A DNA stretch of 64,000 bases from Escherichia coli. GTDB taxonomy: Bacteria > Pseudomonadota > Gammaproteobacteria > Enterobacterales > Enterobacteriaceae. Under the pieces are notes generated by a model. That model saw nothing but the letters and a program-made list of their open reading frames with translations, was not told the DNA's origin and did no database searches. The DNA is taken from assembly GCF_003790525.1 (NCBI RefSeq), contig NZ_CP033635.1, one strand, 5' to 3'. The translations under genes were made by a program, and so were the position numbers. This document shows positions 7,400 to 59,983 of this stretch, piece after piece; the first letter of the stretch is position 1, and each line of letters begins with the position of its first letter.

Positions 7400-7487
7400 T
7401 GGCGGTGAGGGGGGGATTCGAACCCCCGATACGTTGCCGTATACACACTTTCCAGGCGTGCTCCTTCAGCCACTCGGACACCTCACC
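7400..7487 (-). tRNA. serW: tRNA-Ser (GGA anticodon)
   Basis: Reverse complement gives GGTGAGGTGTCCGAGTGGCTGAAGGAGCACGCCTGGAAAGTGTG...GGTTCGAATCCCCCCCTCACCGCCA with long variable arm. Confidence 0.9.
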
Positions 7488-8243: not shown

Positions 8244-8948
8244 TCATTCTTGTGGTGAAAACAAGCACCGTGGTACCCAGAAATTATTCGGCAATCGTCC
8301 GAGGCGCATTTGATTGAGATAATTTAGATAATCCCGGCGGGGAATTTCGCAGGCACCAAGCGAAGCTGTGTGATCGTTAAGGACCTGGCAGTCGATAAGC
8401 TTACCGCCATGACCAATAAATTCCTCACAGAATACCAGAAGCGCCGTTTTAGACGCATTTTCCATCCGGCTGAACATGGACTCGCCACAAAATAGCGTTC
8501 CCTGGGCCACGCCGTACATACCGCCGACAAGCTCATCTTCACGCCAGACTTCAATAGAGTGGGCATGACCGAGTTCGTGAAGGCGATGGTAGGCTTCGAC
8601 CACGCCACGCGTGATCCAGGTTCCTTCTTCGCGATCGCTGGCACAGCCTTCAATGACCTGACCAAAAGCGTAATTCATCGTGACTCGATAGGGCGAGCGT
8701 TTATGAAATCGCTTCATACTACGGCTGATATGCAGTGATTCTGGCCATAGCACCGCGCGGGGATCGGGCGACCACCAGAGGATGGGGTCGCCTGGAGAAA
8801 ACCACGGAAAAATACCACGCTGGTAAGCCATTAACAGGCGCGCAGGGCTAAGATCGCCCCCCAGTGCCAGCAGGCCGTTAGGCTCACGTAATGCGCCTTC
8901 CGGGGAAGGGAAGGCTATTGAATGGCGAGAAAGCTGAACCAGGCGCAT
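8244..8948 (-). CDS. aat: Leucyl/phenylalanyl-tRNA-protein transferase
   Basis: 234-aa translation; conserved position between infA and cydC. Confidence 0.9.
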
Positions 8949-8989
8949 GACCGCAAAACTCCACGCAAGTCGGATCGTTCAATAATAGC

Positions 8990-10711
8990 TTACAAACCCT
9001 GCTTAAACTGGTAATAACGCCCCTGTCGGGCAAGCAGTTCTGCGTGAGTACCTTGCTCAATAATTTGCCCGTTGTCCATCACTATTATTTGCTGGAAACG
9101 AGAGAGCCCGCGAAGTCGATGGGTGACCATTAACACCGTTTTCTCACGCATCATTTCTGCAAGTAATTCAAGGATCTGACTTTCAGTTGTGGCATCTAAG
9201 CCTTCGGTAGGTTCATCCAGCAATACCAGTGGCGCATCATGTAACAGCGCACGGGCGATAGCCAGACGGCGCAGTTCACCACCGGAGAGCTGGCGTCCGC
9301 CTTCACCCAACCAACTGTTGAGACCTGCATCCTCGAGCAGCTTCTCCAGACCAACGCGACGCAAGATCTCCGCCAGAGCCTCATCACTACTATCAGGCGA
9401 GGCGAGTAACAGATTATCACGCAGCGTGGCGCTAAACAGATGCACTCGCTGTGGCACAACGCTGATGGTCTGTCGTAGAGTCGCTTCATTCAGGCTGGCT
9501 ATGGGGCTATCGTTAAGCAAAATCTCGCCCTGTTGCGGGTCCCATGCGCGGGTCAGCAGTTGTAACAATGTTGATTTGCCGCATCCGGTTCGCCCGAGAA
9601 TCGCTATATGTTCTCCGGCGTTTACCTGAAGAGAAATCCCTTTAAGTGCCTGTTGGGATTGCTCTGGATAAGTGAACTGAACATCCCGTAATGTCAGCGA
9701 AACACGATCGGCAACACGAGTTTGGGTATCAGGGAAGGTGACTTCCGGTTTTTGATCCGTTAAGTCAGTGATCCGTACGGCAGAGGCAATGACTTGCCCC
9801 AGATGCTGAAATGCACCCGTTACTGGTGCCAGTGCTTCAAACGCGGCTAACGCGCAGAAGACAAACAGGGCAATTAACGCGCCGGGTTGAGCATTGCCGC
9901 CAACGCCGCCAGACGCCATCCACAGCATCAGGATCACCGCTAACGCGCCAATGAGCAGCATTATCGCTTGCGACAATGCGGTGAGTTCAGATTGACGACG
10001 TTGCGATTCCAGCCACTGAATTTCGGTATTCTCTAACTGCGTGCGATAACGATCGCTGGCACCAAAAATGGTCAGCTCAGCTTGCCCTTGCAGCCAGGCC
10101 GTCAGTTGTTGGCGATACTGCCCGCGAAGATGAGTCAGATTTTGCCCGGTGCTTTTTCCCGCACGATAAAACAGTGGTGGCATAAGGAAAAGCGTCAGTA
10201 ACATAATGCCGCCCAGCGTAAAGGCGAGGGTGAAATCAAGGAAACTTAACCCGATTGTCACCACCATAATCACCACAAAAGCGCCCACCAGCGGCGAGAT
10301 AACGCGCAGGTAAAGATGATCGAGCGTATCAACATCCGCCACCACGCGGTTGAGCAATTCGCCCTGACGATAGCGCGCCAGTCCGGCAGGGGAGAGGGGC
10401 AGCAATTTGCTGAAGGTATAAATGCGCAGATGCTGCAACACGCGGAAAGTCGCGTCGTGACTTACCAGGCGTTCAAAATAGCGCCCGGCAGTACGGGTGA
10501 TTGCTGCGCCACGCACGCCCGCAGCGGGTAGCATATAGTTGAAGCTGTACAGTCCGGCAACCCCCGCAACCGCTGAGGCGGAGAGGAACCAGCCCGAAAG
10601 TGTCAACAGACCGATGCTGGCGAGCAGCGTGACAATTGCCAGCACAATACCAAGACTTAACATCCATTTATGACGTTTATACAGTGCCAGATAGGGTAGC
10701 AAAGCGCGCAT
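8990..10711 (-). CDS. cydC: Cysteine/glutathione ABC exporter subunit CydC
   Basis: N-terminal 6-TM domain plus C-terminal ABC ATPase (GRTGCGKST, LSGGE). Confidence 0.9.
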   Translation of the reverse strand: MRALLPYLALYKRHKWMLSLGIVLAIVTLLASIGLLTLSGWFLSASAVAGVAGLYSFNYMLPAAGVRGAAITRTAGRYFERLVSHDATFRVLQHLRIYTFSKLLPLSPAGLARYRQGELLNRVVADVDTLDHLYLRVISPLVGAFVVIMVVTIGLSFLDFTLAFTLGGIMLLTLFLMPPLFYRAGKSTGQNLTHLRGQYRQQLTAWLQGQAELTIFGASDRYRTQLENTEIQWLESQRRQSELTALSQAIMLLIGALAVILMLWMASGGVGGNAQPGALIALFVFCALAAFEALAPVTGAFQHLGQVIASAVRITDLTDQKPEVTFPDTQTRVADRVSLTLRDVQFTYPEQSQQALKGISLQVNAGEHIAILGRTGCGKSTLLQLLTRAWDPQQGEILLNDSPIASLNEATLRQTISVVPQRVHLFSATLRDNLLLASPDSSDEALAEILRRVGLEKLLEDAGLNSWLGEGGRQLSGGELRRLAIARALLHDAPLVLLDEPTEGLDATTESQILELLAEMMREKTVLMVTHRLRGLSRFQQIIVMDNGQIIEQGTHAELLARQGRYYQFKQGL

Positions 10712-29876: not shown

Positions 29877-30026
29877 TAACCGTCGTGCCCTTTGAGCACA
29901 TTGAAGACTTTGTGGCGGATATCGCCGTTATTTTCAACTGGTCTCCCGCTGAAATCTTCCTGATGGATCCCGGCGAGGTGGTCGCCTGGCGTGAGCGGGC
30001 GGCCCTTCGCAGCGGGAACGCAGAGC

Positions 30027-33000
30027 ATGAAAACGCTTGATATACGGGTCGCCTTCAGCGCTGTTGACAGGCTGACCCGTCCCACCGAAAACGCCCGTCG
30101 CATGATGGGCCAGCTTGGCGACTCCATACAGAGAACGCAGGGTGCGATCAAAAACCTGGAACGCTACGCCCGTTCATTTGATCGCGCCCGCGAGGCTGCA
30201 AACAAGGCCGGAAACGGCATTGTCAGGGCGCAACGCCAGTTAAGCGCACTTCAGCAAATTCAGCGCGCCGGAACCGTGCTGTCTGACAAACAGAAAAAGC
30301 TGATGAACGATTTGAGCCTCAAACTTGAGCGTCTCAATGAGGTCCGTGCGCGTGAAGTTCAGCGAATGCGCGAACTGGGTGGTGAGCTGCGGCGCCACGG
30401 TATTGCGCTTTCCGGCAGTGACAACACCATTCAACAGGCCATACGGCGAACACAGCAATACAACGACCAGCTGGAACGCGAACGGCAGGCGCTGGCACGT
30501 GTCACGCAGGCACGCCAGCAATATTCCCGTGCTCAGGAGACGGCGGGAAAACTTAAAACGGTCGGACTTACGGCGGTTGGTACGGCGGCGGCAGGCGGCT
30601 ATGCGGCCGGACGTTTCCTGCAACCGGCGGTCAGTTTTGGTAAGGAGATGTCACGCGTCCAGGCGCTGACCCGTATTGACAAAAACAGTCCGCAGTTTAA
30701 GGCGCTGCGCGAACAGGCCATTAAGCTGGGCTCTGAAACGCAGTTTACCGCCGGTGATGCTGCCAGCGGTCAGGCGTTCCTTGCCATGGCCGGCTTCACA
30801 CCACAGGCCATACAGGCGGCGCTACCCGGCGTGCTTGATCTGGCAATGGCTGCAGGGATGGACCTGGGACAGACTGCCGATATCAGTTCGAATATCCTCA
30901 CACAGTTTGGTCTGTCCGCTGACCAGATGGATCGCGTGGGTGACACGCTGGCCGCCACCTTCACACGAACCAATACGGATCTCCGTTCACTGGGTGAAAC
31001 CATGAAGTACACGGGTCCGGTTGCAGCTTCACTTGGCCTGTCCCTTGAACAGGCGGCAGCCATGACGGGTGTCCTTGGCAGTGTGGGGATCCGTGGAAGT
31101 GATGCAGGTACGGCGCTGCGTGCCAGTCTGTCACGTCTGGTTGATCCGCCGAAGGCCGCTGCAATGGCACTGAAAGAGCTTGGCGTGGAGACGCAGAATG
31201 CTTACGGGAACATGCGCCGGATGGAAAATATCCTGAATGAGCTGTACCAGGCCACCCGAAAATACGGTAATGCCGCGCAGGTCTCCTTTTTCAGGGCTAT
31301 TGCCGGGCAGGAGTCCTATGTTTCCCTGATGAATCTTGTCACTGCGGCGGGGGAAAATAATCTTCCCCGTCTTACGCAGGAGATTGAACTGGCCACCGGG
31401 GAACTTAATCACACTGCCCGTGTTATGGCTGATAACCTGGACGGTGACCTGAAATCACTGAACAGCGCATGGGAAGGACTGCGTATCCGTGTCGCTGACC
31501 TCGTTGACGGGCCGCTGCGTTCTGTCACGCAGTCGTTCACCCGGGTTATTGCGAAAGTCACCGCGCTGGCTCAGGCGCACCCTGAACTGACAAAACAACT
31601 GCTGATTGCCGGTGGTGTACTGCTGGCTGCGGTTGCGGCCATGGGGGCGCTGTCACTTGCCACTGGTGTGTTGATGGGGCCGCTGGCAAAACTGCGTCTT
31701 GGGTTTGCCCTGCTGACCGGCACATCCGGCCTCGGTCGTGCGCTGCCGTTACTGACGCAGCTGCGCGGCGTACTCGGTGGTCCGCTGGGCGGTATCGGTG
31801 GCTGGCGCGTGCTGTTTGTCGGTATCACCTCCGGTGCCGGACGGTTTGCTGCACTGCTGGGCGTAGTTGCGGGGCGGCTTCGTGGTGTGCAGGCGGGACT
31901 TGGCGCGCTGCGTGGTGGTCTGCTGGCTGCGTTCACTTCACCTGGCGGCGCACTGATTTCACTGGGGCGCGGTATCGGAATACTGGCGCTCAGACTGTCA
32001 GGTCTGCCCGCACTGTGGGGGATGGTGAGTGGTGCGGTGGGCGCACTTGGCGGGGCGCTGGGTTTTCTGTTAAGTCCGGTGGGCCTTGTGGTGGCGACAC
32101 TGGTCGGTGCGGCAGTGCTTATCTGGCGGCACTGGGACCAGCTGAAGGCTGTCGTGGGCGGGTTCTTGTCCGGCCTGTGGCAGGGGCTTACGCCACTGCG
32201 CGAGGCTGTGGCACCACTGGGACCGCTGTTTGAGTATGTCGGGCAGACAATCGGGCGTGTGTGGCAGTGGTTCGTGGATTTGTTCGCGCCGGTAAGCACA
32301 ACAAAGGATGAGCTGGACAAGTGCACGGAAGCCGGGCGTACGTTCGGGCAGAAGGTAGGGGAGTTTATCAGCAATCTGGTGACCGGTCCGGTTACGCTGC
32401 TGATTGACTCATTAACCCGGGTGCTGGAAAAACTCGGGCTGATTCCGTCGGCGGTTGAGCGCGCCCGGAAAAAGGCGGAAGAACTAAAACAGAAGGAGTT
32501 GCTGAACGAGAAAGCTGCCATGCTTCTGGCGGATGTTAACGTCATTAATCCGCCGAAAAAGGACGAGGATAAAAAAGACGGCGAAAAACCCAAAGGGGGG
32601 CAACCACCCCTGACGGGGGAGAATACCGGCACTATGCGCCGCCTGAACAAAATCGTCGATAACACCGGTGGTCTGCTGGATGAGGCGAAACAGGCGAAAA
32701 AACGCGCTGGTCCCGGCGATATTATCTTTAAAAACCTGCCGGAAGCGCTGGCCGTTCGTGGTGAGTGGAAGGAGGAACGCTTTAACCGAGCAGCTTCCCT
32801 GTTACCGGGTAGTGTCAGTGAGCCACCTGTCAGACTGCCGCAGGTGCCGTCGGTCAGTGTGCCTTCGTTGCCACCGCTGCCAGCGCCACCGCCTGTCAGT
32901 GTTTCGCCGCTGATATCCACCACGGCGAACGTGTCGCCGGTCGTGAAGCCGGTGGTGTCCGTGAATAATGTGCCGGTTATTCCTCCGGTCGTCCGTCCGG

Positions 33001-33338
33001 TACTGTCCGGTAATATTACGCCAGTGGTTCCGCCGGTGATCAAACCGGTTATGACTCACGATGTCATGCCGACGTTCTCCCCGCTAATGACACCAGTGAT
33101 GGCGGCAACATCCCGTCCGGTGGTTGAGGCTGTGCGCCAGCCCATATCCCCCGCATCGCCCCGACCGCGCCAGAGTGAGCCGGCACCATGGGGATTAACT
33201 GGCGAACTGCATATTCACCTGCATGATGTTCACACGCAAAACCCGCGCGAACTGGCAAAAATGGTGGGTGATGCCGTCCGTGCGGAAATGGAACGCCGTA
33301 TCCGCCAGACAGTCGGTAGTTTCCGTGACAGAGATTAG
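30027..33338 (+). CDS. T: Tail tape measure protein (P2 T-like)
   Basis: About 1103 aa, coiled-coil N-terminus, Gly/Ala-rich hydrophobic middle; start MKTLDIRV. Confidence 0.85.
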   Translation: MKTLDIRVAFSAVDRLTRPTENARRMMGQLGDSIQRTQGAIKNLERYARSFDRAREAANKAGNGIVRAQRQLSALQQIQRAGTVLSDKQKKLMNDLSLKLERLNEVRAREVQRMRELGGELRRHGIALSGSDNTIQQAIRRTQQYNDQLERERQALARVTQARQQYSRAQETAGKLKTVGLTAVGTAAAGGYAAGRFLQPAVSFGKEMSRVQALTRIDKNSPQFKALREQAIKLGSETQFTAGDAASGQAFLAMAGFTPQAIQAALPGVLDLAMAAGMDLGQTADISSNILTQFGLSADQMDRVGDTLAATFTRTNTDLRSLGETMKYTGPVAASLGLSLEQAAAMTGVLGSVGIRGSDAGTALRASLSRLVDPPKAAAMALKELGVETQNAYGNMRRMENILNELYQATRKYGNAAQVSFFRAIAGQESYVSLMNLVTAAGENNLPRLTQEIELATGELNHTARVMADNLDGDLKSLNSAWEGLRIRVADLVDGPLRSVTQSFTRVIAKVTALAQAHPELTKQLLIAGGVLLAAVAAMGALSLATGVLMGPLAKLRLGFALLTGTSGLGRALPLLTQLRGVLGGPLGGIGGWRVLFVGITSGAGRFAALLGVVAGRLRGVQAGLGALRGGLLAAFTSPGGALISLGRGIGILALRLSGLPALWGMVSGAVGALGGALGFLLSPVGLVVATLVGAAVLIWRHWDQLKAVVGGFLSGLWQGLTPLREAVAPLGPLFEYVGQTIGRVWQWFVDLFAPVSTTKDELDKCTEAGRTFGQKVGEFISNLVTGPVTLLIDSLTRVLEKLGLIPSAVERARKKAEELKQKELLNEKAAMLLADVNVINPPKKDEDKKDGEKPKGGQPPLTGENTGTMRRLNKIVDNTGGLLDEAKQAKKRAGPGDIIFKNLPEALAVRGEWKEERFNRAASLLPGSVSEPPVRLPQVPSVSVPSLPPLPAPPPVSVSPLISTTANVSPVVKPVVSVNNVPVIPPVVRPVLSGNITPVVPPVIKPVMTHDVMPTFSPLMTPVMAATSRPVVEAVRQPISPASPRPRQSEPAPWGLTGELHIHLHDVHTQNPRELAKMVGDAVRAEMERRIRQTVGSFRDRD

Positions 33339-45368: not shown

Positions 45369-47120
45369 ATGATTCAGGATACATTTGTTCGCCAGCGGGC
45401 ACGCCAGCTGTACTGGCAGGGTTACCCTGTTGCGGAAATTTCCCGCCTTATGGGTATCAACCAGAACACGATCCATTCGTGGAAAAAACGCGACCAGTGG
45501 GATGAGACGCCCCCGGTTCAGCGTGTCACGCAGTCCATGGATGCGCGACTCATTCAGCTCACGGAAAAACAGAATAAAACAGGCGGGGACTTTAAGGAAA
45601 TTGATTTGCTGACCCGTCAGCTTAAAAAGCTGCATGACGGTCTGCCGGATGAGACGGCAACAGGAAAGAAAGGCCGGGCGAAAAAACACAAAAATCATTT
45701 CACGCCGGAACAGATCGCGGCGCTGCGGGAAAAAATTACCGACAGGCTGGCCGGACACCAGCGCAAATGGCTTGATGCTATCGGTGCCTGTGAGCGTGCC
45801 GGAATTACTGACAGGATGATCCTGAAATCCCGCCAGATTGGGGCGACCTGGTATTTTGCGCAGGAAGCGCTGCTGATGGCGCTGCGTGACGATGTGGCAC
45901 AACCTTACCAGCGTAACCAGATTTTTTTGTCTGCGTCTCGTCGTCAGGCGCTCCAGTTTAAAAGCATTATTCAGAAGGCTGCATCTGAAGTTGATGTGGA
46001 ACTGAAAGGGGGCGATAAAGTCATCCTCTCCAACGGTGCAGAGCTGCATTTTCTCGGCACTTCTGCGGCCACCGCGCAAGCGTACACAGGGAATCTGTAT
46101 TTTGATGAGTTTTTCTGGACGGGGCGTTTCGCAGAGCTGCGCAAGGTGGCTGCTGCTATGGCAACGCTGGATGGTTTGCGGTGTACCTATTTTTCCACGC
46201 CATCAAGTGAAACACATGAGGCGTATGCATACTGGAACGGCGATCACTGGAATGAAGGGCTTCGTACTCATAAACGTCAGCATTTTGATGTGAGCTGGAA
46301 TGCGCTTCATAACGGCCTTATCTGTCCTGACTATATCTGGCGGCAAATTGTGACGCTGGAAGATGTGGTCAGTCAGGGATGGACGTTAACCAACATTGAC
46401 AAAATCCGGCGCAATAACACTGAAGACGAGTTCCGCAATCTCTACATGTGTGAATTTGCTCGCGAAGGGGAATCGGCATTTAACCTGAATATCCTGATTG
46501 GCTGCGGTGTTGACGGATACGACGAGTGGCCGGACTGGAAGCCGTTTGCACCGCGTCCGATGGGGAACCGCCCTGTGTGGATTGGGTACGACGCCAACGG
46601 CAGTAGCGGGAACGGTGACAGCGGGGCGGTTGTCGTGGTGGTGCCGCCAGCCGTACCGGGCGGGCGTTTTCGCACCGTGGAGACGCGGCGGGTGCAGGGG
46701 CTGGAGTTTGAGGCGCAGGCGAAGGTGATTGAAGAGTTCACCTTTCGCTATAACGTTGAGCATATCGGTATTGACGTAACCGGCGGTCACGGGGATGCGG
46801 TGTATCAGATTGTGAAGCGCTTTTTTCCGGCAGCCATTCCCTACACCTTCACCCTGTCATCAAAGCGCACGCTGGTTCTGAAGATGCTGCAGCTCATGCG
46901 CGCCGGGCGGTGGGAGTACGACCGCAGCGAGCGCGAACTGGTGAGCGCCTTTAACGCGGTACGCAAAACAAAAACGCAGGCCGGATTTATCACCTACGAA
47001 ACAGATCGCGCAAGAGGCGTAAGCCATGGCGATCTTGCATGGGCCACCATGCTGGCCGTTATCAACGAACCTGTCGGCGGTGAACATGATGCCGCCCCCT
47101 TCAGTGTTACGGAGTTCTGA
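45369..47120 (+). CDS. P: Terminase large (ATPase) subunit (P2 P-like)
   Basis: 583 aa; position. Confidence 0.9.
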   Translation: MIQDTFVRQRARQLYWQGYPVAEISRLMGINQNTIHSWKKRDQWDETPPVQRVTQSMDARLIQLTEKQNKTGGDFKEIDLLTRQLKKLHDGLPDETATGKKGRAKKHKNHFTPEQIAALREKITDRLAGHQRKWLDAIGACERAGITDRMILKSRQIGATWYFAQEALLMALRDDVAQPYQRNQIFLSASRRQALQFKSIIQKAASEVDVELKGGDKVILSNGAELHFLGTSAATAQAYTGNLYFDEFFWTGRFAELRKVAAAMATLDGLRCTYFSTPSSETHEAYAYWNGDHWNEGLRTHKRQHFDVSWNALHNGLICPDYIWRQIVTLEDVVSQGWTLTNIDKIRRNNTEDEFRNLYMCEFAREGESAFNLNILIGCGVDGYDEWPDWKPFAPRPMGNRPVWIGYDANGSSGNGDSGAVVVVVPPAVPGGRFRTVETRRVQGLEFEAQAKVIEEFTFRYNVEHIGIDVTGGHGDAVYQIVKRFFPAAIPYTFTLSSKRTLVLKMLQLMRAGRWEYDRSERELVSAFNAVRKTKTQAGFITYETDRARGVSHGDLAWATMLAVINEPVGGEHDAAPFSVTEF

Positions 47121-48175
47121 TGAGCAGAAAAAATAAACAACGACGTACGAACGCCCGCGCAGCGCAGGGCAGCCTTGCGGATTCCCTGCGAAGCGACCCG
47201 ACACTGAGTGCCTTCACGTTTGAAGGACCTTACCGGCTGTCAGGGGCCGACCTGCTGGACAGCATGTACTGCGCCGACAACGGGCGGTGGTTTGAAACGC
47301 CCGTTGACTGGTACGGACTGGCACGGGCTGCCCGCCAGACGTCCTGGCACCAGTCGGCGCTCAGCTTCAAACGTAATGTGCTGCTGGGCTGCTATATTCC
47401 ACATCCTCTGCTGTCCCGCCAGGAGTTCGCCGGGGTGGCGATGGACTGGTTTGTGTTCGGTAATGCCTGTCTTGAGCTGCGGCGCAACATGCTTGGCGAA
47501 CCGCTGGCCCTGCGCCGGGCGCTGGCGAAATACATGCGACGTGGCAGCGATATGAAATCATGGTGGTATATACAGGAAGGACAGGAAGAGTACCGCTTTC
47601 GTGAGGGGACGATATGCCACCTGATGAATCCTGATATCAACCAGGAGATTTACGGGATGCCGGATTACCTGGGCGGCCTGCTGTCTGCCAGCCTGTCACA
47701 TTCCGCCGATATCTTCCGCAAGCTCTACTACGATAACGGCTCACACGCGGGCTGTATTGTCTACATCGGTGCGGCGCAGGTTGACCGTGAAAGCATGGAA
47801 AAACTGCGGGAAACACTGCAAAGCGCGCGTGGTGGCGGGGCGTTTAAAAATCTGCTCATCCACGCGGCGGGAGGTGGTAAGGATGGCGTACAGATTTTGC
47901 CGTTTCAGCAAATCACCGCAAAGGATGAGTTCATGAACGTCAAGGCTGCATCGCGTGATGATGTGCTGTCCGTGCACCGTGTACCGCCGCAGCTGATGGG
48001 GGCCATGCCGGGTGAGAAGGGGTCATTCGGGGATGTGGAGAAGGCAGCCCGTGTGTTTGCCATTAACGAACTGATGCCCGTCATGGAAGCAATGAAACAC
48101 GTCAACGACTGGCTGGGCGAAGAGGTGATCCGTTTTAACCCTTACGCACTGTTAGACACCCAGCCCATATCCTGA
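47120..48175 (+). CDS. Q: Portal protein (P2 Q-like)
   Basis: 351 aa; position after P. Confidence 0.9.
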   Translation: MSRKNKQRRTNARAAQGSLADSLRSDPTLSAFTFEGPYRLSGADLLDSMYCADNGRWFETPVDWYGLARAARQTSWHQSALSFKRNVLLGCYIPHPLLSRQEFAGVAMDWFVFGNACLELRRNMLGEPLALRRALAKYMRRGSDMKSWWYIQEGQEEYRFREGTICHLMNPDINQEIYGMPDYLGGLLSASLSHSADIFRKLYYDNGSHAGCIVYIGAAQVDRESMEKLRETLQSARGGGAFKNLLIHAAGGGKDGVQILPFQQITAKDEFMNVKAASRDDVLSVHRVPPQLMGAMPGEKGSFGDVEKAARVFAINELMPVMEAMKHVNDWLGEEVIRFNPYALLDTQPIS

Positions 48176-48202
48176 CGCGCTTCGCTTGTCTGCTGCTTCG
48201 CC

Positions 48203-48225
48203 GGGGCATAAAAAATTTATGCCCC
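48203..48225. terminator. Hairpin between the portal gene and the cargo gene
   Basis: ggggcataaaaaatttatgcccc. Confidence 0.5.
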
Positions 48226-48241
48226 GACTCTCCAGCTCTGC

Positions 48242-48955
48242 TTAACGAAGTGCTGATGGCGCTCGCTTTTTCAGGTGATTAGCGATGTGCTTTTTCATGT
48301 GCATAACAACATCGCCCCAGGCTTCTTCGCTGGGTTTATTGATAAATACGCGAACAGAAATATCGTCTTCCACCCGGACTCTCAGAGACACCCGTTCCGC
48401 ATCTACTGAATATAATTCAAGTGCAATAACCACGCTTACCGGGTAGCTGCTGTCAGATGACTTAACCCAGGTTCGCACGGCCATGCGGAAAATATTGTCT
48501 GGTGCAGATGCGATATTGTGGACTGAAAGAGGACTAAAATCCGCCGCTGTCTTACATGGCAAGCCTGTCTCCACGTAGCGGTGCAGGTCGCCATCATCGT
48601 CTTCCCAGTACATGGATGGAAGCCCCAGCCATTCTTCATAGAAATCAATCAGCCTTGCCGCTTCATCCCGCAAAATTTGAGCTGCCTCAGCGCGTTTTTC
48701 TTCAGCTTCACGATTGATCTGGCATAAATCATTAAAGTGGCTCATGACATTATCCTCTTTTGAGTTGATGCCTGCCGCTATTCTGACTTTGCCCGGGTTC
48801 TCCTGCAAGCTGGTTATTCCTTCAGATAATTTCACAACATCTCCAACCTTGTAGCCATCATCGCCGGGCGGATGCTTACGCAACCCCGCAACTCTGACGA
48901 CATATTCTCGCTGCCTCAGTGCGATTTTGACGGCCTTATCTTTCACCCCCATCAA
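48242..48955 (-). CDS. Uncharacterised cargo protein at the P2 tin/old position (237 aa, or 167 aa from an internal start at about 48745)
   Basis: Own transcription unit; internal ATG has SD AAGAGGATAA; no motif recognised. Confidence 0.5.
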   Translation of the reverse strand: MMGVKDKAVKIALRQREYVVRVAGLRKHPPGDDGYKVGDVVKLSEGITSLQENPGKVRIAAGINSKEDNVMSHFNDLCQINREAEEKRAEAAQILRDEAARLIDFYEEWLGLPSMYWEDDDGDLHRYVETGLPCKTAADFSPLSVHNIASAPDNIFRMAVRTWVKSSDSSYPVSVVIALELYSVDAERVSLRVRVEDDISVRVFINKPSEEAWGDVVMHMKKHIANHLKKRAPSALR

Positions 48956-49235
48956 ATCAAGCTTTTACGTCTTTTTTACGCTCAGCGTGAGAAATACAGC
49001 CATTCTGTTGTGTCGCTGCAACATCGTTCAGGGAATGCTATTTACCCCCTGAAACGCGGGCTGTTCCCCCGTCACCTGCGCGCAGAAAAAGGCCTTTTTT
49101 CGTGCACGCACGGATCCCCGACGGATCCAGACGCCACACGGGCCGGAAGGGCAAAAAGTCGTTCAAAAAAATTGTGCAAATTTGTGCACTATTGTGCATT
49201 GAAATAAACGCCCTGGAGGAGGGCGTTTTGCTCAT

Positions 49236-49637
49236 CTATTTATAGCCTTGCCCCTTACTGGCCAGCGCCCTGATGGCAGGGCGTGCCAACACCATATTTT
49301 GGCAATGATGAATTGCCCGGCAAAATTCATCTCTACCCATTGGATGCTCAACTGGCAATGTAAAATACAGGTTCCATGCATCGCCTAAAAGTTGGGCTAT
49401 CTTTTGTTCTTCAGATGTCAGCAAGCGGTACTCCCCATCCTTGATGTAGTCACTTGTGCCATCGACCTGCTGTTCTGCAATGTGGAAAGCACCTATTGGT
49501 TTTGCTTCCAGCGATGCCAAAGCAATCCGTGCCAGTTTTTCCGCTTCTTCGGCTGGCAGTACAACGTTGCTACCAGGTCCGTATGTTTCGCGCCACTGCC
49601 TGATTGTCAGTAGTCGCTCTTTGGTTATAGTGGTCAT
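49236..49637 (-). CDS. Hypothetical protein (133 aa), last gene of the operon downstream of A
   Basis: ORF track; start overlaps upstream ORF; followed by a terminator at about 49210-49232. Confidence 0.45.
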   Translation of the reverse strand: MTTITKERLLTIRQWRETYGPGSNVVLPAEEAEKLARIALASLEAKPIGAFHIAEQQVDGTSDYIKDGEYRLLTSEEQKIAQLLGDAWNLYFTLPVEHPMGRDEFCRAIHHCQNMVLARPAIRALASKGQGYK

Positions 49638-49843
49638 TTGTTAATCCTCAAAACTTTATGCCCGGGCGCAAAAGCACGAGTTTTGTCTTTGCTTATTCGC
49701 CAGCCATCCTTACGCGCCTCTTTTGCACAGCCAGTCCATGACGTACCGATATATTCACCGAAGTCTGGCGTTTGATATTTACCATTTGTACACTGGCGAC
49801 AATCACAATAGAGATGCATGGTGTAACTTGCGGCAATAGCCAT
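49634..49843 (-). CDS. Hypothetical Cys-rich small protein (69 aa), possible zinc ribbon
   Basis: CDCRQC...C pattern; translationally coupled to neighbours. Confidence 0.4.
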   Translation of the reverse strand: MAIAASYTMHLYCDCRQCTNGKYQTPDFGEYIGTSWTGCAKEARKDGWRISKDKTRAFAPGHKVLRINK

Positions 49844-49844
49844 A

Positions 49845-50174
49845 TCAGTCTCCTTTGATGCCAGTGTTTACAACCTGACAAGCCTCTTTGAGCACCCAGT
49901 CAACAGCGTCTTGCCATGCTCCGGTTTCGACTGGCGGATTCTCACGCTTTACCAGTTCATAGAAACGTACTGCTCTAACCAGTCCATCTGACGGTTTTGC
50001 CTGTAGTGCAGCCTGAGCTATGCGGTATACCTGGAGCATACAGGCGTCGTTGATATCCATTCCGAATGGAATATCTGATGACTGAGATTCCACATCTTCC
50101 AGCCTGGCAATTTCTTTACGTAAGAAGCCTTTCAGTTCCTGCTTCTGTTTCCTGTTCATATATTTTTCCTTCAA
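49845..50174 (-). CDS. Hypothetical protein (109 aa)
   Basis: ORF track; coupled within the operon. Confidence 0.45.
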   Translation of the reverse strand: MKEKYMNRKQKQELKGFLRKEIARLEDVESQSSDIPFGMDINDACMLQVYRIAQAALQAKPSDGLVRAVRFYELVKRENPPVETGAWQDAVDWVLKEACQVVNTGIKGD

Positions 50175-50365
50175 AGTTCGGTTCGCTGACAGGGTTTCTC
50201 TTTACGGCAGACAATGACGCTTCCTTTGCTCGAGTCGGTGATTGTTACCGTGCCGTCATCACACTGGACAATGACAACGGTGTTGCTCTTTTTCGCTACG
50301 CAGTTCGGCGTGGCTGATTGTGCGAATGGCGCGAAAAACAGCAGAAAAAGTAATATTCTGCTCAC
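50171..50365 (-). CDS. Candidate small secreted Cys-containing peptide (about 63 aa, GTG start)
   Basis: SD GGGAGGAAA before GTG; hydrophobic signal-like N-terminus and four Cys. Confidence 0.3.
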   Translation of the reverse strand: MSRILLFLLFFAPFAQSATPNCVAKKSNTVVIVQCDDGTVTITDSSKGSVIVCRKEKPCQRTEL

Positions 50366-50793
50366 TGTTGTTTCCTCCCGTTCTGTGCTGGTCTGGCGAA
50401 TGAATTGCGTTGTGGTGAAAAGACCATTCGCGCCAGCGCGGCCTTGTGATTGACTGTGTTCAGTGTTCTGGCCAGTCCGCCGTTGTGCCTGCGTGTCCGC
50501 TCTTCGTGATATCTCTGCATGATTTTCCCGGCAGGCGTGCACGGCTCCGGTTCCTCCGGCGAACGGCGCGGACGAATGACGACAGTCCAGCTATGGCTCT
50601 CGCTGCCCGGCCGCCTGTTGAGTATGTCGGCGATGGTGGTCTCCGTGGTGCGATCGGGGCTGACTATCGTGATTTCCAGCTCGTCGCCCGGTTGTGGCCT
50701 TGTGGCAGGCCTGAACAGTGTCAGCACCGGCATACGCTGGCGCATGATGGCCTCAAACTGTGGGCGCTGCATGGTGCAGCAAAATCGCGTCAT
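50362..50793 (-). CDS. Hypothetical protein (143 aa), translationally coupled to A
   Basis: Start overlaps the A stop. Confidence 0.45.
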   Translation of the reverse strand: MTRFCCTMQRPQFEAIMRQRMPVLTLFRPATRPQPGDELEITIVSPDRTTETTIADILNRRPGSESHSWTVVIRPRRSPEEPEPCTPAGKIMQRYHEERTRRHNGGLARTLNTVNHKAALARMVFSPQRNSFARPAQNGRKQQ

Positions 50794-53300
50794 GCTCCCG
50801 CCTCCACTGGCTGCTCTGTGATGATGTGACGGGCTGACTCATCCCAGTACGCTGTTCCCCCGTTATCCAGACGCACACGGGCACCGTTACGCACGGAGAT
50901 GATGGCCGCGTCAGGCAACTGCACACCCAGCGCATCAAGTTCGCGGGCGATTTGCGTGTCCGTCGCGGTATCCGCAGGCACGACAATCCCCACCCTTACA
51001 GGGGTGTCAGATGCCGGTGTGGTGTCGTTTTGTCCGGTTTTTGCGCCCGACGGCTGATTTTTAATCTGATTACGCAGTTTTCTCCGATCGCCCCTGCTTA
51101 ACGTATTCAGCCAGCTTTCCAGGTTCTCTTCGGGAAGCGTCAGTCGTCCGGGGTCCTGCCTGTTTTCTGGTCCGTGATTGTCTGTTTTTTCATCCCGGGG
51201 ACAGTTATTGCCACGAGTCCAAGGGGCGACGGGGTCGCCCTGAAGGTCAAAACCCTCGCCCGTGCGGTTGTCTGGTATTGTTTCTTTTTTAACCAGTTTC
51301 CACTCGTCCGGATGGGTGCATATGGTGTACCGCTCTCCGAGCGACGGGGCGCAGATTCCGTAGATACGTTGAGGGAATTCACCGTAGTCGTTGGCTTCGT
51401 CTGCGGTTTCGTATGCGGTGCGGACCAGATACTGGTTGCGCGGAATGAGCACACCACCCTGTTTCATGATGTAGGTGGCAAAACATCCCACATCTGCGGC
51501 AGCCATAATGGCGTCAATATCGTCATGATCGAGGTGCTTCGGTGATGCCGGGTTGCGCTCCATCTGGCTTGCAAGGCGGCGGAGTTCACGCCATACCTGG
51601 CGGGGCGGAATGCCGAAAAACTGGAACTGACGGATGCGGTGAAGGCTTGCCCAGGCAATGGCGTTCTCCACGGTTTCCGCCATGGTTTTCCCGGATTCCT
51701 CATCAACGTAAGGTTTTCCGGTTTTCGGATCATTGTTGTGGAAAGCGCTGGCGTCCAGGTTCTTACCGATATAGGTTGCGATATAGCTTGCCGGTGTGCC
51801 TTTTTCCGGGTCTATCTTCTCGCATTTAAAGCGCGGTGAAATATCGTCCCCCAGTTCGTGGCGATCTGATTTAATTGCTGCTTCGCGCATAATTTCGATG
51901 ATGCGCTCTGCGTTCTCCGGGGAAGTGAATACCAGCATATGCCAGTGTGGCGTGCCGTCATGGTGTGGCTCAGCGGTTCGCACGCCGTACCAGCCCAGCC
52001 CCTCTTTTTTTATTTTTTTTCTTACGGCTGCGAAGAAGTCGTAAACCAGATAATCACTGGCATCTCGTACTGTGGCACCGTTGTATTTCGGGTTCAGGCT
52101 GCCGTTCTCGTTCACGCTGTGAAAGCGGGAAGGGGTGGTTACTGTGATGAAGAATGCGACGTCAGCCCGTAATTCGGCCACCATCTCCATCCCTCTGACG
52201 CAGACCATCATTTCATTGCGGCGGTTGCGTGGATTACCCAGGCCAGCCCAGTACACGTCCTCCAGACTCAGGCGCTCGCCGTCTTCGTTTTCAATATCCC
52301 AGCTTTTGAGAAAGTCACAGGTGCGCTGGCGCTTCTCGCGGAACTCCAGTAGTGACTCATGGCTGATATAGGGGGATTGTTTACGTGACACTCTGCCGGC
52401 GGCGCGCAGTAACTCCTCCCGCCAGAGATCGGCGACGTGGCGTAACTGGTTGTTCCACCAGGTCGCGCAGGTGATGCGCAGTACCGCACCCGGAACCCGT
52501 TCAGGGTCCGGCGGTGTGCGTCGGTTGTGCCTGATTTCGAGTTCCGGCCAGTATGGCGGGACCATGCCCAGAATTAAGGCTGTGCGTGCCACCTTCTGGT
52601 AGGCCAGCAGCCAGATAACCGGGCTGTCATTATCCTTGCCTGTCCGTTCAAGAACTTCATCACATATGCGTTCAAATTCTGCGGCGAATGCCTGGGCTGT
52701 CAGTGTGGCGATGCGCTGGATTTCGTCACGGGTGAGTTGCGGCAGTGTGAGCAGTTCTTCAAGGCGATGGCGCACGACGGTGGTTTTGAATGCCGGCGTT
52801 GCAAAGCGGTCGTTAACCCTTTCAATACGTTTCAGGCGCGCACGCAGTCCACGGCGAACGAAATTATCGGCCACGTATGCGCTGTTGTTTTTTACACCTT
52901 CACTGCGGGCACTTTGCTGTTTCCGGTTCAGTCGTGCCAGATCACGGATCAACACACTGGCAAGAAACGAGGGCAGGGTGCGAAGTTCGGCTATCGCCTC
53001 CGATACCGCCGTTGGCGGATTTTCGCGTCTGTGTCGTGCCAGCTTATCCAGCCTTATCTGCCGCTCTTCGTCCCGGTGAAGGTGTGAATTAATTTGCTTA
53101 CCTTTGTCCGTGGTTGTCAGGAAGGCCACGGTTTCTTCATCCAGCCGGGCCTCAGTGCGAATGTCTTCGGTGAGGTAGTCACGGATTGCCCGTTGTAATG
53201 CGGTTGGCTTCTGCGGTAATGCTCTGCCGAATGTCTCAGGATCAATAACCGGCAGCGGGGCGTTCCACGGGTACGCCAGGTGCGTGTGGTGATGGCTCAT
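50790..53300 (-). CDS. A: Replication initiation protein (P2 A-like)
   Basis: 836 aa; position downstream of the regulatory genes. Confidence 0.85.
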   Translation of the reverse strand: MSHHHTHLAYPWNAPLPVIDPETFGRALPQKPTALQRAIRDYLTEDIRTEARLDEETVAFLTTTDKGKQINSHLHRDEERQIRLDKLARHRRENPPTAVSEAIAELRTLPSFLASVLIRDLARLNRKQQSARSEGVKNNSAYVADNFVRRGLRARLKRIERVNDRFATPAFKTTVVRHRLEELLTLPQLTRDEIQRIATLTAQAFAAEFERICDEVLERTGKDNDSPVIWLLAYQKVARTALILGMVPPYWPELEIRHNRRTPPDPERVPGAVLRITCATWWNNQLRHVADLWREELLRAAGRVSRKQSPYISHESLLEFREKRQRTCDFLKSWDIENEDGERLSLEDVYWAGLGNPRNRRNEMMVCVRGMEMVAELRADVAFFITVTTPSRFHSVNENGSLNPKYNGATVRDASDYLVYDFFAAVRKKIKKEGLGWYGVRTAEPHHDGTPHWHMLVFTSPENAERIIEIMREAAIKSDRHELGDDISPRFKCEKIDPEKGTPASYIATYIGKNLDASAFHNNDPKTGKPYVDEESGKTMAETVENAIAWASLHRIRQFQFFGIPPRQVWRELRRLASQMERNPASPKHLDHDDIDAIMAAADVGCFATYIMKQGGVLIPRNQYLVRTAYETADEANDYGEFPQRIYGICAPSLGERYTICTHPDEWKLVKKETIPDNRTGEGFDLQGDPVAPWTRGNNCPRDEKTDNHGPENRQDPGRLTLPEENLESWLNTLSRGDRRKLRNQIKNQPSGAKTGQNDTTPASDTPVRVGIVVPADTATDTQIARELDALGVQLPDAAIISVRNGARVRLDNGGTAYWDESARHIITEQPVEAGA

Positions 53301-54020: not shown

Positions 54021-54245
54021 CTCTGTAGTTGCAAGTTTTGAAAACTCACCATCCAGAGGTTGCAATTCTGGGTGGCGAGACGTACAGGGTTGCAACCACC
54101 GGCAACTACAGAAACCGGCCCGACCGAAGTCGGCCCCATACGCCCCGCCATAATTCTGGCGCGAAAAAGACGTGGCGATACGGTACGCACAAAAAAACCG
54201 CTGGCGCGGTTGTGCGCTGTAGTTGTCAGCGGGGGTTGCAATCCC
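54021..54245. repeat. Cluster of GTTGCAA(C)/TAGTTGCAA motifs in a 320-bp intergenic region
   Basis: Six copies in both orientations at about 54026, 54057, 54087, 54101, 54219 and 54233. Confidence 0.45.
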
Positions 54246-54332
54246 GGCACCCGTTTTATGAGGTGCAGCGGAAATGTAACCTGACTGATTGCGGCATGGC
54301 AAGCGGTTTTTTTGTGTGTGCATAGTGGTTAC

Positions 54333-55121: not shown

Positions 55122-55604
55122 ATGCAAAACAACCAACGTAAAAAATCGAGAGAACGGGATGAGGTCATGTTCCGTCTCTGGTACAGCTACTGGCTGGAGC
55201 GCATCGCGGCGGTATTCAATCGTCGCCTTGATGCGATCATCAACATTTTGATCCTTGCGGCGGGTGCGTTCATCGTAGCCGGCTGGCATTTCGGCTGGGT
55301 GCTTGGGGCAGTGGTGGTGGTTCTCGGAGCCTGTAATTTCATATGTCGTTTCGGGCAACGTGCGCAGGCGGCGAGTGAGCATGCCCATCGCTACAATGAG
55401 TTGATTACCAAAAGCGCCCTCCTCAGTACGGAAGCTCTGCTGGCACGCCTTCCAGAGCTTGAGATGCATGACTCTCCTGTCCTGGAATGCATGGAAAATG
55501 TGGCGTACAACAAAGCCTGTATGTCTCTGAATATCAGTCATCGTGAATCTCTCTCTTTCGCTGAAAAGATGATGGCTGCCATTACGATCGGTTTTTCCCG
55601 ATAA
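55122..55604 (+). CDS. Small membrane protein (160 aa, two adjacent TM helices), opposite strand to all neighbours
   Basis: SD GAGGG; INILILAAGAFIVAGW and GWVLGAVVVVLGACNFI hydrophobic segments. Confidence 0.55.
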   Translation: MQNNQRKKSRERDEVMFRLWYSYWLERIAAVFNRRLDAIINILILAAGAFIVAGWHFGWVLGAVVVVLGACNFICRFGQRAQAASEHAHRYNELITKSALLSTEALLARLPELEMHDSPVLECMENVAYNKACMSLNISHRESLSFAEKMMAAITIGFSR

Positions 55605-59687: not shown

Positions 59688-59773
59688 TTATTTGTGATAA
59701 TTTGCTCCCCTTGTTTTTGTTTACTTATTGAAAAATAAGGAAATCAGCAAGAGGAGTAAGTACCGTTAAATCT

Positions 59774-59788
59774 CCTGCGGGCGCTTTT
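59774..59788. other. attR core CCTGCGGGCGCTTTT
   Basis: Identical 15-mer at 22385-22399. Confidence 0.7.
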
Positions 59789-59983
59789 TTTGTCTCCCTT
59801 TGATACCGAACAATAATTACTCCTCACTTACACGTAATACTACTTTCGAGTGAAAATCTACCTATCTCTTTGATTTTCAAATTATTCGATATATACAAGC
59901 CTATATAGCGACCTGCTATAGAAATAATTACACAATACGGTTTGTTACTGGAATCAATCGTGAGCAAGCTTGAGTGAGCCATT

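Follow-up and report, generated by a model that had tools for sequence, protein, structure and literature searches.

Which genes occupy the variable slot between the portal gene and the replication gene of a P2-family prophage, and do they protect the lysogen or serve the phage itself? We addressed this question for positions 48176-50793 of a 64,000-nucleotide stretch of Escherichia coli DNA (hereafter the window), which are exactly the portal-to-gpA interval of a P88-like prophage (Xuanwuvirus, P2 family) and hold six genes, named here as open reading frames (ORFs) after the length of their products in amino acids (aa). The interval consists of two unrelated units with cos between them: unit 1 (49236-50793), a run of five genes behind gpA, and unit 2 (48242-48808), which contains ORF167. 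The reading that we favor, with a probability of roughly 0.55, is a composite one in which unit 1 would be an early accessory tail belonging to the phage itself and unit 2 would be an autonomous moron. Gene structure, mosaic origin, variability and the absence of domains were observed directly; expression timing and all functions are what we infer. The cargo is uncharacterized, lies in a known hotspot and has already been catalogued, and what is added here is the correction of several gene models, a position for cos and a list of priorities, with no new mechanism.

A variable slot divided by cos

The interval is anchored on the left by the portal gene, a gpQ homologue (47120-48175, + strand; PF04860 Phage_portal, annotated as phage portal protein), and on the right by the gpA replication endonuclease gene (50790-53300, - strand; PF05840 Phage_GPA, annotated as replication endonuclease), which heads the coupled run. 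Pfam matches and synteny thus place it between gpA and the portal gene of a P2-like prophage, the position of a cos-proximal hotspot for which 1,650 gene arrangements have been described among 18,150 E. coli loci (PMC9122126). Its cargo varied among otherwise syntenic relatives, with ParM/StbB in the same slot of P88, RelE/HTH and DUF6516 in strain CM2, Gp49/HTH_37 in Edwardsiella relatives and HicAB in a further relative. The published survey, together with the differing cargo of close and distant relatives, bears out the preliminary description of this DNA, made from the sequence alone, which had taken the slot for such a hotspot. The 3 kb from 48000 to 51000 recurred with 100% identity in the chromosomes of several E. 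coli strains. Among 5426 complete E. coli genomes, the cos block was found in 1102, the ORF167 segment in 30 and ORF143 together with ORF64 in 23; roughly a fifth of the complete E. coli genomes carry a P88-like prophage. The six-gene arrangement is already present in Table S5 (the locus list) of Rousset et al. 2022 as 'hypothetical x6' (PMC9122126) and, compared by accession, is absent from the systems tested in that study. The cos-proximal slot of these prophages is a proven source of new immune systems, and exclusion of other phages by ORF167 or ORF64, if it occurs, would make either one a new and compact system consisting of a single gene.

All of the ORFs named in the preliminary description were present, each with a Shine-Dalgarno-like sequence, and its remark that the stand-alone gene has no recognizable motif extends to all six proteins, none of which has a recognizable domain. 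The six proteins gave no match in Pfam, NCBIfam, PADLOC-DB v2 (families counted at E<=0.1) or, by sequence or profile, the PDB, except for a marginal PADLOC match of ORF104 to PDC-M28C (E = 0.01, 12.7 bits); the PADLOC check that had been proposed for each protein therefore yielded no defense-family match beyond this one. PDB searches by sequence or profile for all of the families retrieved only designed coiled coils, which we rejected as spurious. No type II toxin-antitoxin domain was found in the six proteins by Pfam, NCBIfam or PADLOC, no Pfam or PADLOC match to P2 Old (OLD ATPase-Toprim nuclease) or Tin was found in the interval, and no Rfam family matched within it. None of the six resembles a P2 core orf, the comparison of Orf91 with ORF143 being without a match. 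The interval is thus comparable to the P2 orf91-tin-old hotspot in position, in the presence of cos and in variable content, but shows no similarity to Old, Tin or Orf91.

The location of cos, which had previously been left anywhere within 48176-49235, was narrowed to 49055-49214, between ORF167 and the five-gene run, with 49058-49076 and about 49134-49153 as the candidates for the cohesive-end core. This block is the sole intergenic block kept in E. coli, Salmonella and Edwardsiella relatives, conservation extending over 49055-49214 in the Salmonella relative and over only 49065-49114 in the Edwardsiella relative. A 28-bp block, GGGCTGTTCCCCCGTCACCTGCGCGCAG, at 49058-49085 occurred once per locus in every P88-like relative compared, without any change in the loci of E. 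coli and Salmonella and with 3-4 substitutions in those of Edwardsiella and in P88_4B11, and its 20-bp core was found again in more distant viral contigs. The cos block also contains short repeats. ACGGATCC stands there twice as a direct repeat with a spacing of 11 bp (49110-49128), and a ATTGTGCA-type motif recurs three times at spacings of 10 and 20 bp (49168-49198); both may be binding sites for terminase or a host factor. These repeats (49110-49198) were kept in Salmonella and partly in Edwardsiella and P2.

We placed cos on the basis of this cross-genus conservation and not of similarity to the P2 cohesive end. The P2 19-mer (reverse complement) was aligned by MAFFT onto 49058-49076 with 13/19 matches, but 17 sites in the window reached at least 13/19, so that a call by 19-mer likeness alone was rejected as being at chance level; blastn-short with the same 19-mer returned nothing significant. 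The linear P88_4B11 record begins at 49153/49154 without terminal redundancy, and its ends were for that reason not decisive. P88 is a P2-like coliphage inducible by mitomycin (PMC5285337), and the P88 literature contains mitomycin C inducibility only and no cos data. A 65-aa ORF that spans cos (49038-49235) had no PHROG match and was judged spurious. With cos in 49055-49214, ORF167 lies on the portal side and the five-gene run on the gpA side, and only the gpA side corresponds to the position of P2 orf91-tin-old. The portal side of cos in P2 holds only 187 bp and a terminator, whereas ORF167 sits there in this prophage.

The five-gene run behind gpA

Unit 1 consists of five coupled genes of 143, 64, 104, 69 and 133 aa on the same strand as gpA, and the junctions from gpA to ORF133 (ATGA, GTGA, 11 nt, 1 nt and ATGA) agree with the earlier statement that five small ORFs are coupled downstream of A. 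A simple promoter scan found no promoter-like site on the run's own strand inside it. Eight nucleotides past the ORF133 stop lies a hairpin with a 9-bp G+C-rich stem, AAACGCCCT/AGGGCGTTT, followed by the T-rich tract TTTATTTC (49206-49228, - strand), a probable terminator of the early operon. The sequence supports the view that the run closes the early gpA operon as its translationally coupled tail. In P2, old and tin have a promoter of their own and run opposite to gpA; the five genes here are co-oriented with and coupled to gpA. Unit 1 would then be made only upon firing of the early promoter, at infection or induction, and would serve the phage's own program in the manner of the lambda exo-xis/ea genes, with candidate roles in host modulation, in the balance between lysis and lysogeny and perhaps in exclusion of phages while growth is lytic, and with counter-defense also possible.

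The likeness to ea genes is clearest in two of the five proteins. ORF104, whose boundaries were corrected to 49845-50159 (- strand), begins with an N-terminal coil, which a RIAQAALQAKP hinge joins to a small C-terminal domain; it matched phrog_26213 and phrog_660 and is also present in P88, with 92% nucleotide identity and a ratio of nonsynonymous to synonymous substitution rates (dN/dS) of 0.14. ORF133 (49236-49637, - strand), a mosaic of Ea/EaA type, is built from an N-module and a 62-aa C-terminal module with the hinge RIALASLEAKP between them. Annotation pipelines disagree on it, the calls being 133 aa, 62 aa and a pseudogene fragment; its frame is intact, with a ribosome-binding site and an ATGA overlap with ORF69. 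In the alignment the R-I-A-x-A-x-L-x-x-x-P hinge was invariant (RIAxAxLxAKP in both), and the C-terminal domains had been exchanged. The modules also recur in other combinations: an O26 prophage joins an ORF133-type C-module to an ORF104-type N-module, and a lambdoid phage joins an ORF133-type N-module to DUF551 in a protein annotated as 'Ea22' (BLASTP E=2e-5). By tblastn, matches to the ORF133 N-module in P22-like and Stx phages fell in genes annotated as EaA or DUF551, and the C-module was found standing alone in Yersinia and Pseudomonas phages.

ORF104 and ORF133 therefore have the N-module, hinge and swappable C-terminal domain that characterize the modular Ea/EaA/DUF551 early proteins of lambdoid phages, and they share this three-part build, N-module and hinge with the ea proteins (lambda Ea22, P22 EaA, DUF551). 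They differ in that the lambdoid genes belong to the pL operon and these to a P2-family early operon, and in their C-terminal domains; no match to the solved Ea22 C-terminal domain was obtained in the PDB by sequence or profile. Lambda Ea22 has been described as an early, pro-lysogenic, three-domain tetramer (PMC10834534, PMC7093339). By this likeness ORF104 and ORF133 would be modular, oligomerizing Ea-type adaptors with swappable C-terminal domains. If the run does act like lambda exo-xis, P2-family and lambdoid phages would share one pool of early modulators, and the Ea-type modules and the Cys3-His family of ORF69 could be tested in a simpler genetic background.

ORF69 (49634-49843, - strand) is a small basic protein with a full-length match to phrog_926, the residues Cys13, Cys15, Cys18 and His62, and a GW motif. 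Tyr12, Cys13, Cys18, Gly47 and Trp48 were invariant in its family, and Cys15, Pro60 and His62 nearly so; the C-x-C-x2-C...H arrangement is probably a metal site that binds zinc. The family occurred in 433 phage records, from temperate as well as virulent phages and including the virulent Ackermannviridae and Drexlerviridae and Agrobacterium phage 7-7-1. ORF69 together with the 5' end of ORF133 had ~94% DNA identity to the region of Stx phages downstream of exo-bet-gam and was absent from P88.

This wide distribution, along with the position in the early operon, the small size of the proteins and their lack of an enzymatic domain, would also suit a counter-defense function, in which host or rival immunity would be inhibited by small early proteins, ORF69 above all and perhaps also ORF167, which is acidic. 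We regard such a function as rather improbable: structural matches were far below a meaningful level, no similarity to a described anti-defense protein was found in the PDB or Pfam, and ORF167 stands outside the early operon.

The remaining two genes of unit 1 directly follow gpA. ORF143 (50362-50793, - strand) overlaps the gpA stop by ATGA and codes for a basic protein (+11), probably nucleic-acid-binding, with a full-length match to phrog_14984. It is lineage-specific, being confined to E. coli P88-like prophages; homologues with 45-47% identity follow gpA directly in relatives, and dN/dS was 0.38. At two such loci, L019 (9980-10390) and L044 (1162-1587), the homologue follows gpA while the rest of the cargo differs, which argues that ORF143 is a semi-conserved companion of gpA and not swappable cargo. 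Its AlphaFold2 (AF2) model was poor (pLDDT 64), with a beta-alpha-beta-alpha-beta arrangement plus a long helix. Homology to P2 Orf91 as an ASCH/DUF3850 protein was rejected, as there was no BLASTP alignment and no Pfam match in 17 family members, and the AF2 model was too poor for a fold search by which the two could be compared.

ORF64 (50171-50365, - strand) starts with GTG and codes for a predicted exported peptide with a signal sequence, a hydrophobic N-terminus (Kyte-Doolittle 2.03), an AQS|A cleavage site and a mature part of 47 aa with 4 Cys; it had no lipobox and no Pfam match. The secreted peptide suspected earlier is thus supported by a predicted signal sequence, but in this 64-aa product and not in the 123-aa ORF to which it had been assigned. 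The peptide would be exported to the periplasm and probably disulfide-bonded. Only weak matches were found, to phrog_20764, phrog_11462 and Erwinia jumbo phages. In being small, exported and placed among early genes, ORF64 may resemble the T4 Sp/Imm-type early exclusion proteins and small periplasmic phage proteins; it differs in having no sequence similarity to any named protein.

The place of the run at the tail of the early operon, the exchange of modules with 'ea' regions and the occurrence of ORF69 in virulent phages fit early functions of the phage's own better than conversion of the old/tin type, so that defense in the old/tin sense is unlikely for five of the six genes.

ORF167 on the portal side of cos

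The stand-alone gene had been described as extending over 48242-48955, with a product of 237 aa. That it stands alone and has no recognizable domain was borne out, but its length had been over-extended, and the true coding sequence is 48242-48745 (- strand), which codes for an acidic, cytoplasmic alpha+beta protein. Every homologue found was 167 aa long, PHROG 5091 aligned from residue 70 of the 237-aa ORF, and Met71 of that ORF is the ORF167 start, preceded by the ribosome-binding site AAGAGGA. The first 45 codons of the longer ORF, for which a good ribosome-binding site was absent, are a remnant of a 42-aa P88 ORF (48822-48955, - strand; 63% identity) fused in frame to ORF167. Salmonella and Edwardsiella relatives keep the 167-aa part but not the stretch upstream of it, and the remnant is probably untranslated.

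Comparison with P88 by blastn showed two colinear stretches, one from the portal gene as far as 48238 and the other covering 48822-49250, so that 48239-48821 is an extra segment of 583 bp, found in about 3% of P88-like prophages, which carries ORF167 with its ribosome-binding site and a promoter-like footprint (48780-48808, - strand). The footprint consists of TTGCAG (48808-48803), 17 nt and CAGAAT (48785-48780); in five divergent relatives both hexamers were kept and the 17-nt spacer was variable, as would be expected of a sigma-70 promoter. On the other side, a perfect 11-bp inverted repeat, CGGGGCATAAA/TTTATGCCCCG (48202-48226), belongs to the P88 backbone (conserved to 48238) and is probably a bidirectional terminator common to the portal gene and ORF167. 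The G+C content of ORF167 (0.48) is lower than that of its neighbors. By this anatomy ORF167 would be an autonomous moron, with a sigma-70-like promoter, a strong ribosome-binding site and a shared terminator, inserted between the portal terminator and cos. We consider it likely to be the only gene of the six expressed from the repressed prophage.

ORF167 was under purifying selection (dN/dS 0.15 against the Salmonella homologue) and belongs to a very small family, for which 1.84 billion proteins yielded 7 representatives at 50% identity. The order gpA, cos-like motif, ORF167 and convergent portal gene was present at five of the seven divergent loci, these being the ones in which the motif was found; at the other two ORF167 still lay between gpA and the portal gene. 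ORF167 and the portal protein diverged in step, with identities of 75/75, 68/73 and 53/68%. ORF167 is thus similar to phage morons and lysogenic-conversion genes such as P2 old and tin in its self-contained build, its presence in a minority of syntenic prophages and its insertion between backbone features, but differs from them in having diverged with the portal gene across genera without rapid swapping and in having no known domain. Swapped defense cargo would not usually stay so steadily at the junction of cos and the portal gene in different genera.

The AF2 model of ORF167 was confident (pLDDT 85.8, pTM 0.81) and showed an antiparallel sheet between a long N-terminal helix and a C-terminal one. 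A fold search of BFVD returned nothing at E<=0.001, and AFDB50 contained a wider set of uncharacterized ~160-aa proteins of Enterobacterales and Pseudomonas. The lack of catalytic features, together with a weak likeness to adaptor and chaperone folds, suggests partner binding, and the modeled product would be non-enzymatic and most probably act by binding another protein. ORF167 was also considered as an SOS antirepressor like Tum of phage 186; this was rejected, with no LexA box (CTGT-N8-ACAG, <=1 mismatch) in 48100-50900 and no DinI Pfam match.

Insertions of an IS21-family element were seen in both units. In some strains the element interrupts the ORF167 homologue, and in another strain it lies between ORF104 and ORF64; at the relative loci L007 and L020 IS21 insertions occupy 8344-10646 and 8320-10627, respectively. 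Since each unit is interrupted in some strains, neither is needed for maintenance of the prophage. Such insertions in ORF167 or the run, the PGAP call of part of ORF133 as a pseudogene, the three-part mosaic of ORF133 and the over-extension of the 237-aa ORF might all be taken as signs that the run is functionless recombination debris. We consider decay highly improbable, however, because all six genes have ribosome-binding sites and intact frames, dN/dS was 0.14-0.38 for ORF167, ORF104 and ORF143, and the proteins were unchanged on hundreds to >1000 contigs; module swapping is, moreover, the normal mode of evolution of Ea-type proteins.

Another explanation is that the interval carries cargo for anti-phage defense or superinfection exclusion, at least one gene protecting the lysogen as P2 old and tin do, with ORF167 and the exported ORF64 (by a block at entry) as candidates. 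The locus is a published P2 hotspot in which relatives carry toxin-antitoxin and other cassettes, ORF167 has the anatomy, promoter footprint and minority distribution of a moron, and a 2026 preprint predicts an antiviral role for 15-32% of the unknown proteins at the P2 hotspot; it also reports that 19% of P2-like elements have no identifiable defense genes at this locus. No computational test pointed to the anti-phage role that the preliminary description had raised. The proteins lack a convincing PADLOC match and any domain that would mark them as enzymes or sensors, five of the six genes belong to the early operon, parts of the run are common to the lambdoid early-left 'ea' regions and, for ORF69, to virulent phages, and the parallel divergence of ORF167 and the portal gene indicates a long-term association with the backbone instead of rapid swapping. 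We therefore regard defense cargo as possible but unlikely, with ORF167 as the only plausible exclusion candidate expressed in the lysogen and the one worthwhile experimental target.

Several points weigh against the composite reading. The hotspot is rich in defense genes, and more than one third of the unknown cassettes tested from it were active (PMC9122126), so that any of the six genes may yet have a defense role. The early-only production of unit 1 is deduced from operon anatomy and likeness to P2. PGAP labels ORF133 a pseudogene fragment, neither ORF104 nor ORF133 gave a BLASTP alignment with lambda Ea22, and the ORF167 footprint agrees with the consensus at only 7/12 positions and was missed by a simple scan.

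Other features of the prophage

The prophage is inserted between rraA and zapB, and its nearest named phage is P88 (Peduoviridae, Xuanwuvirus). According to the RefSeq annotation of one identical strain, it has the P2-type order on both flanks of the interval, with int, a C-like repressor gene, cox, early genes and the replication endonuclease gene on the gpA side and the genes for portal, terminase, scaffold, capsid and tail on the opposite side. The prophage looks complete; the tape-measure ORF (29991-33338, + strand) is intact here with 1115 aa, and a truncated pseudogene is annotated in strain SCU-115, in which the interval is 100% identical; the window thus derives from another strain or variant.

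An ORF of 160 aa with hydrophobic segments (55122-55604, + strand) runs counter to the early genes around it, matches phrog_6315 (unknown function) and had no match in a PADLOC search. It is possibly a second moron slot, in the int-gpA region, which has been listed as a minor P2 hotspot (2026 preprint).

Two Rfam matches at gathering level, a C4 antisense RNA (54068-54155, - strand; 80 bits) and isrK (54191-54266, - strand; 60 bits), are direct neighbors in the early region upstream of gpA, between the gene for a DNA-binding protein and that for a 'derepression protein'. Their adjacency in this region suggests a C4 RNA switch, that is, a P1/P7-style C4 RNA immunity or antirepressor switch in a P2-family prophage. 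A transfer RNA gene is present at 7403-7487 (- strand). Finally, a full-length match to the small RNA STnc130 (59759-59893, - strand; 127 bits) lies just outside the integrase gene, and its position is probably at or beside the attachment site.

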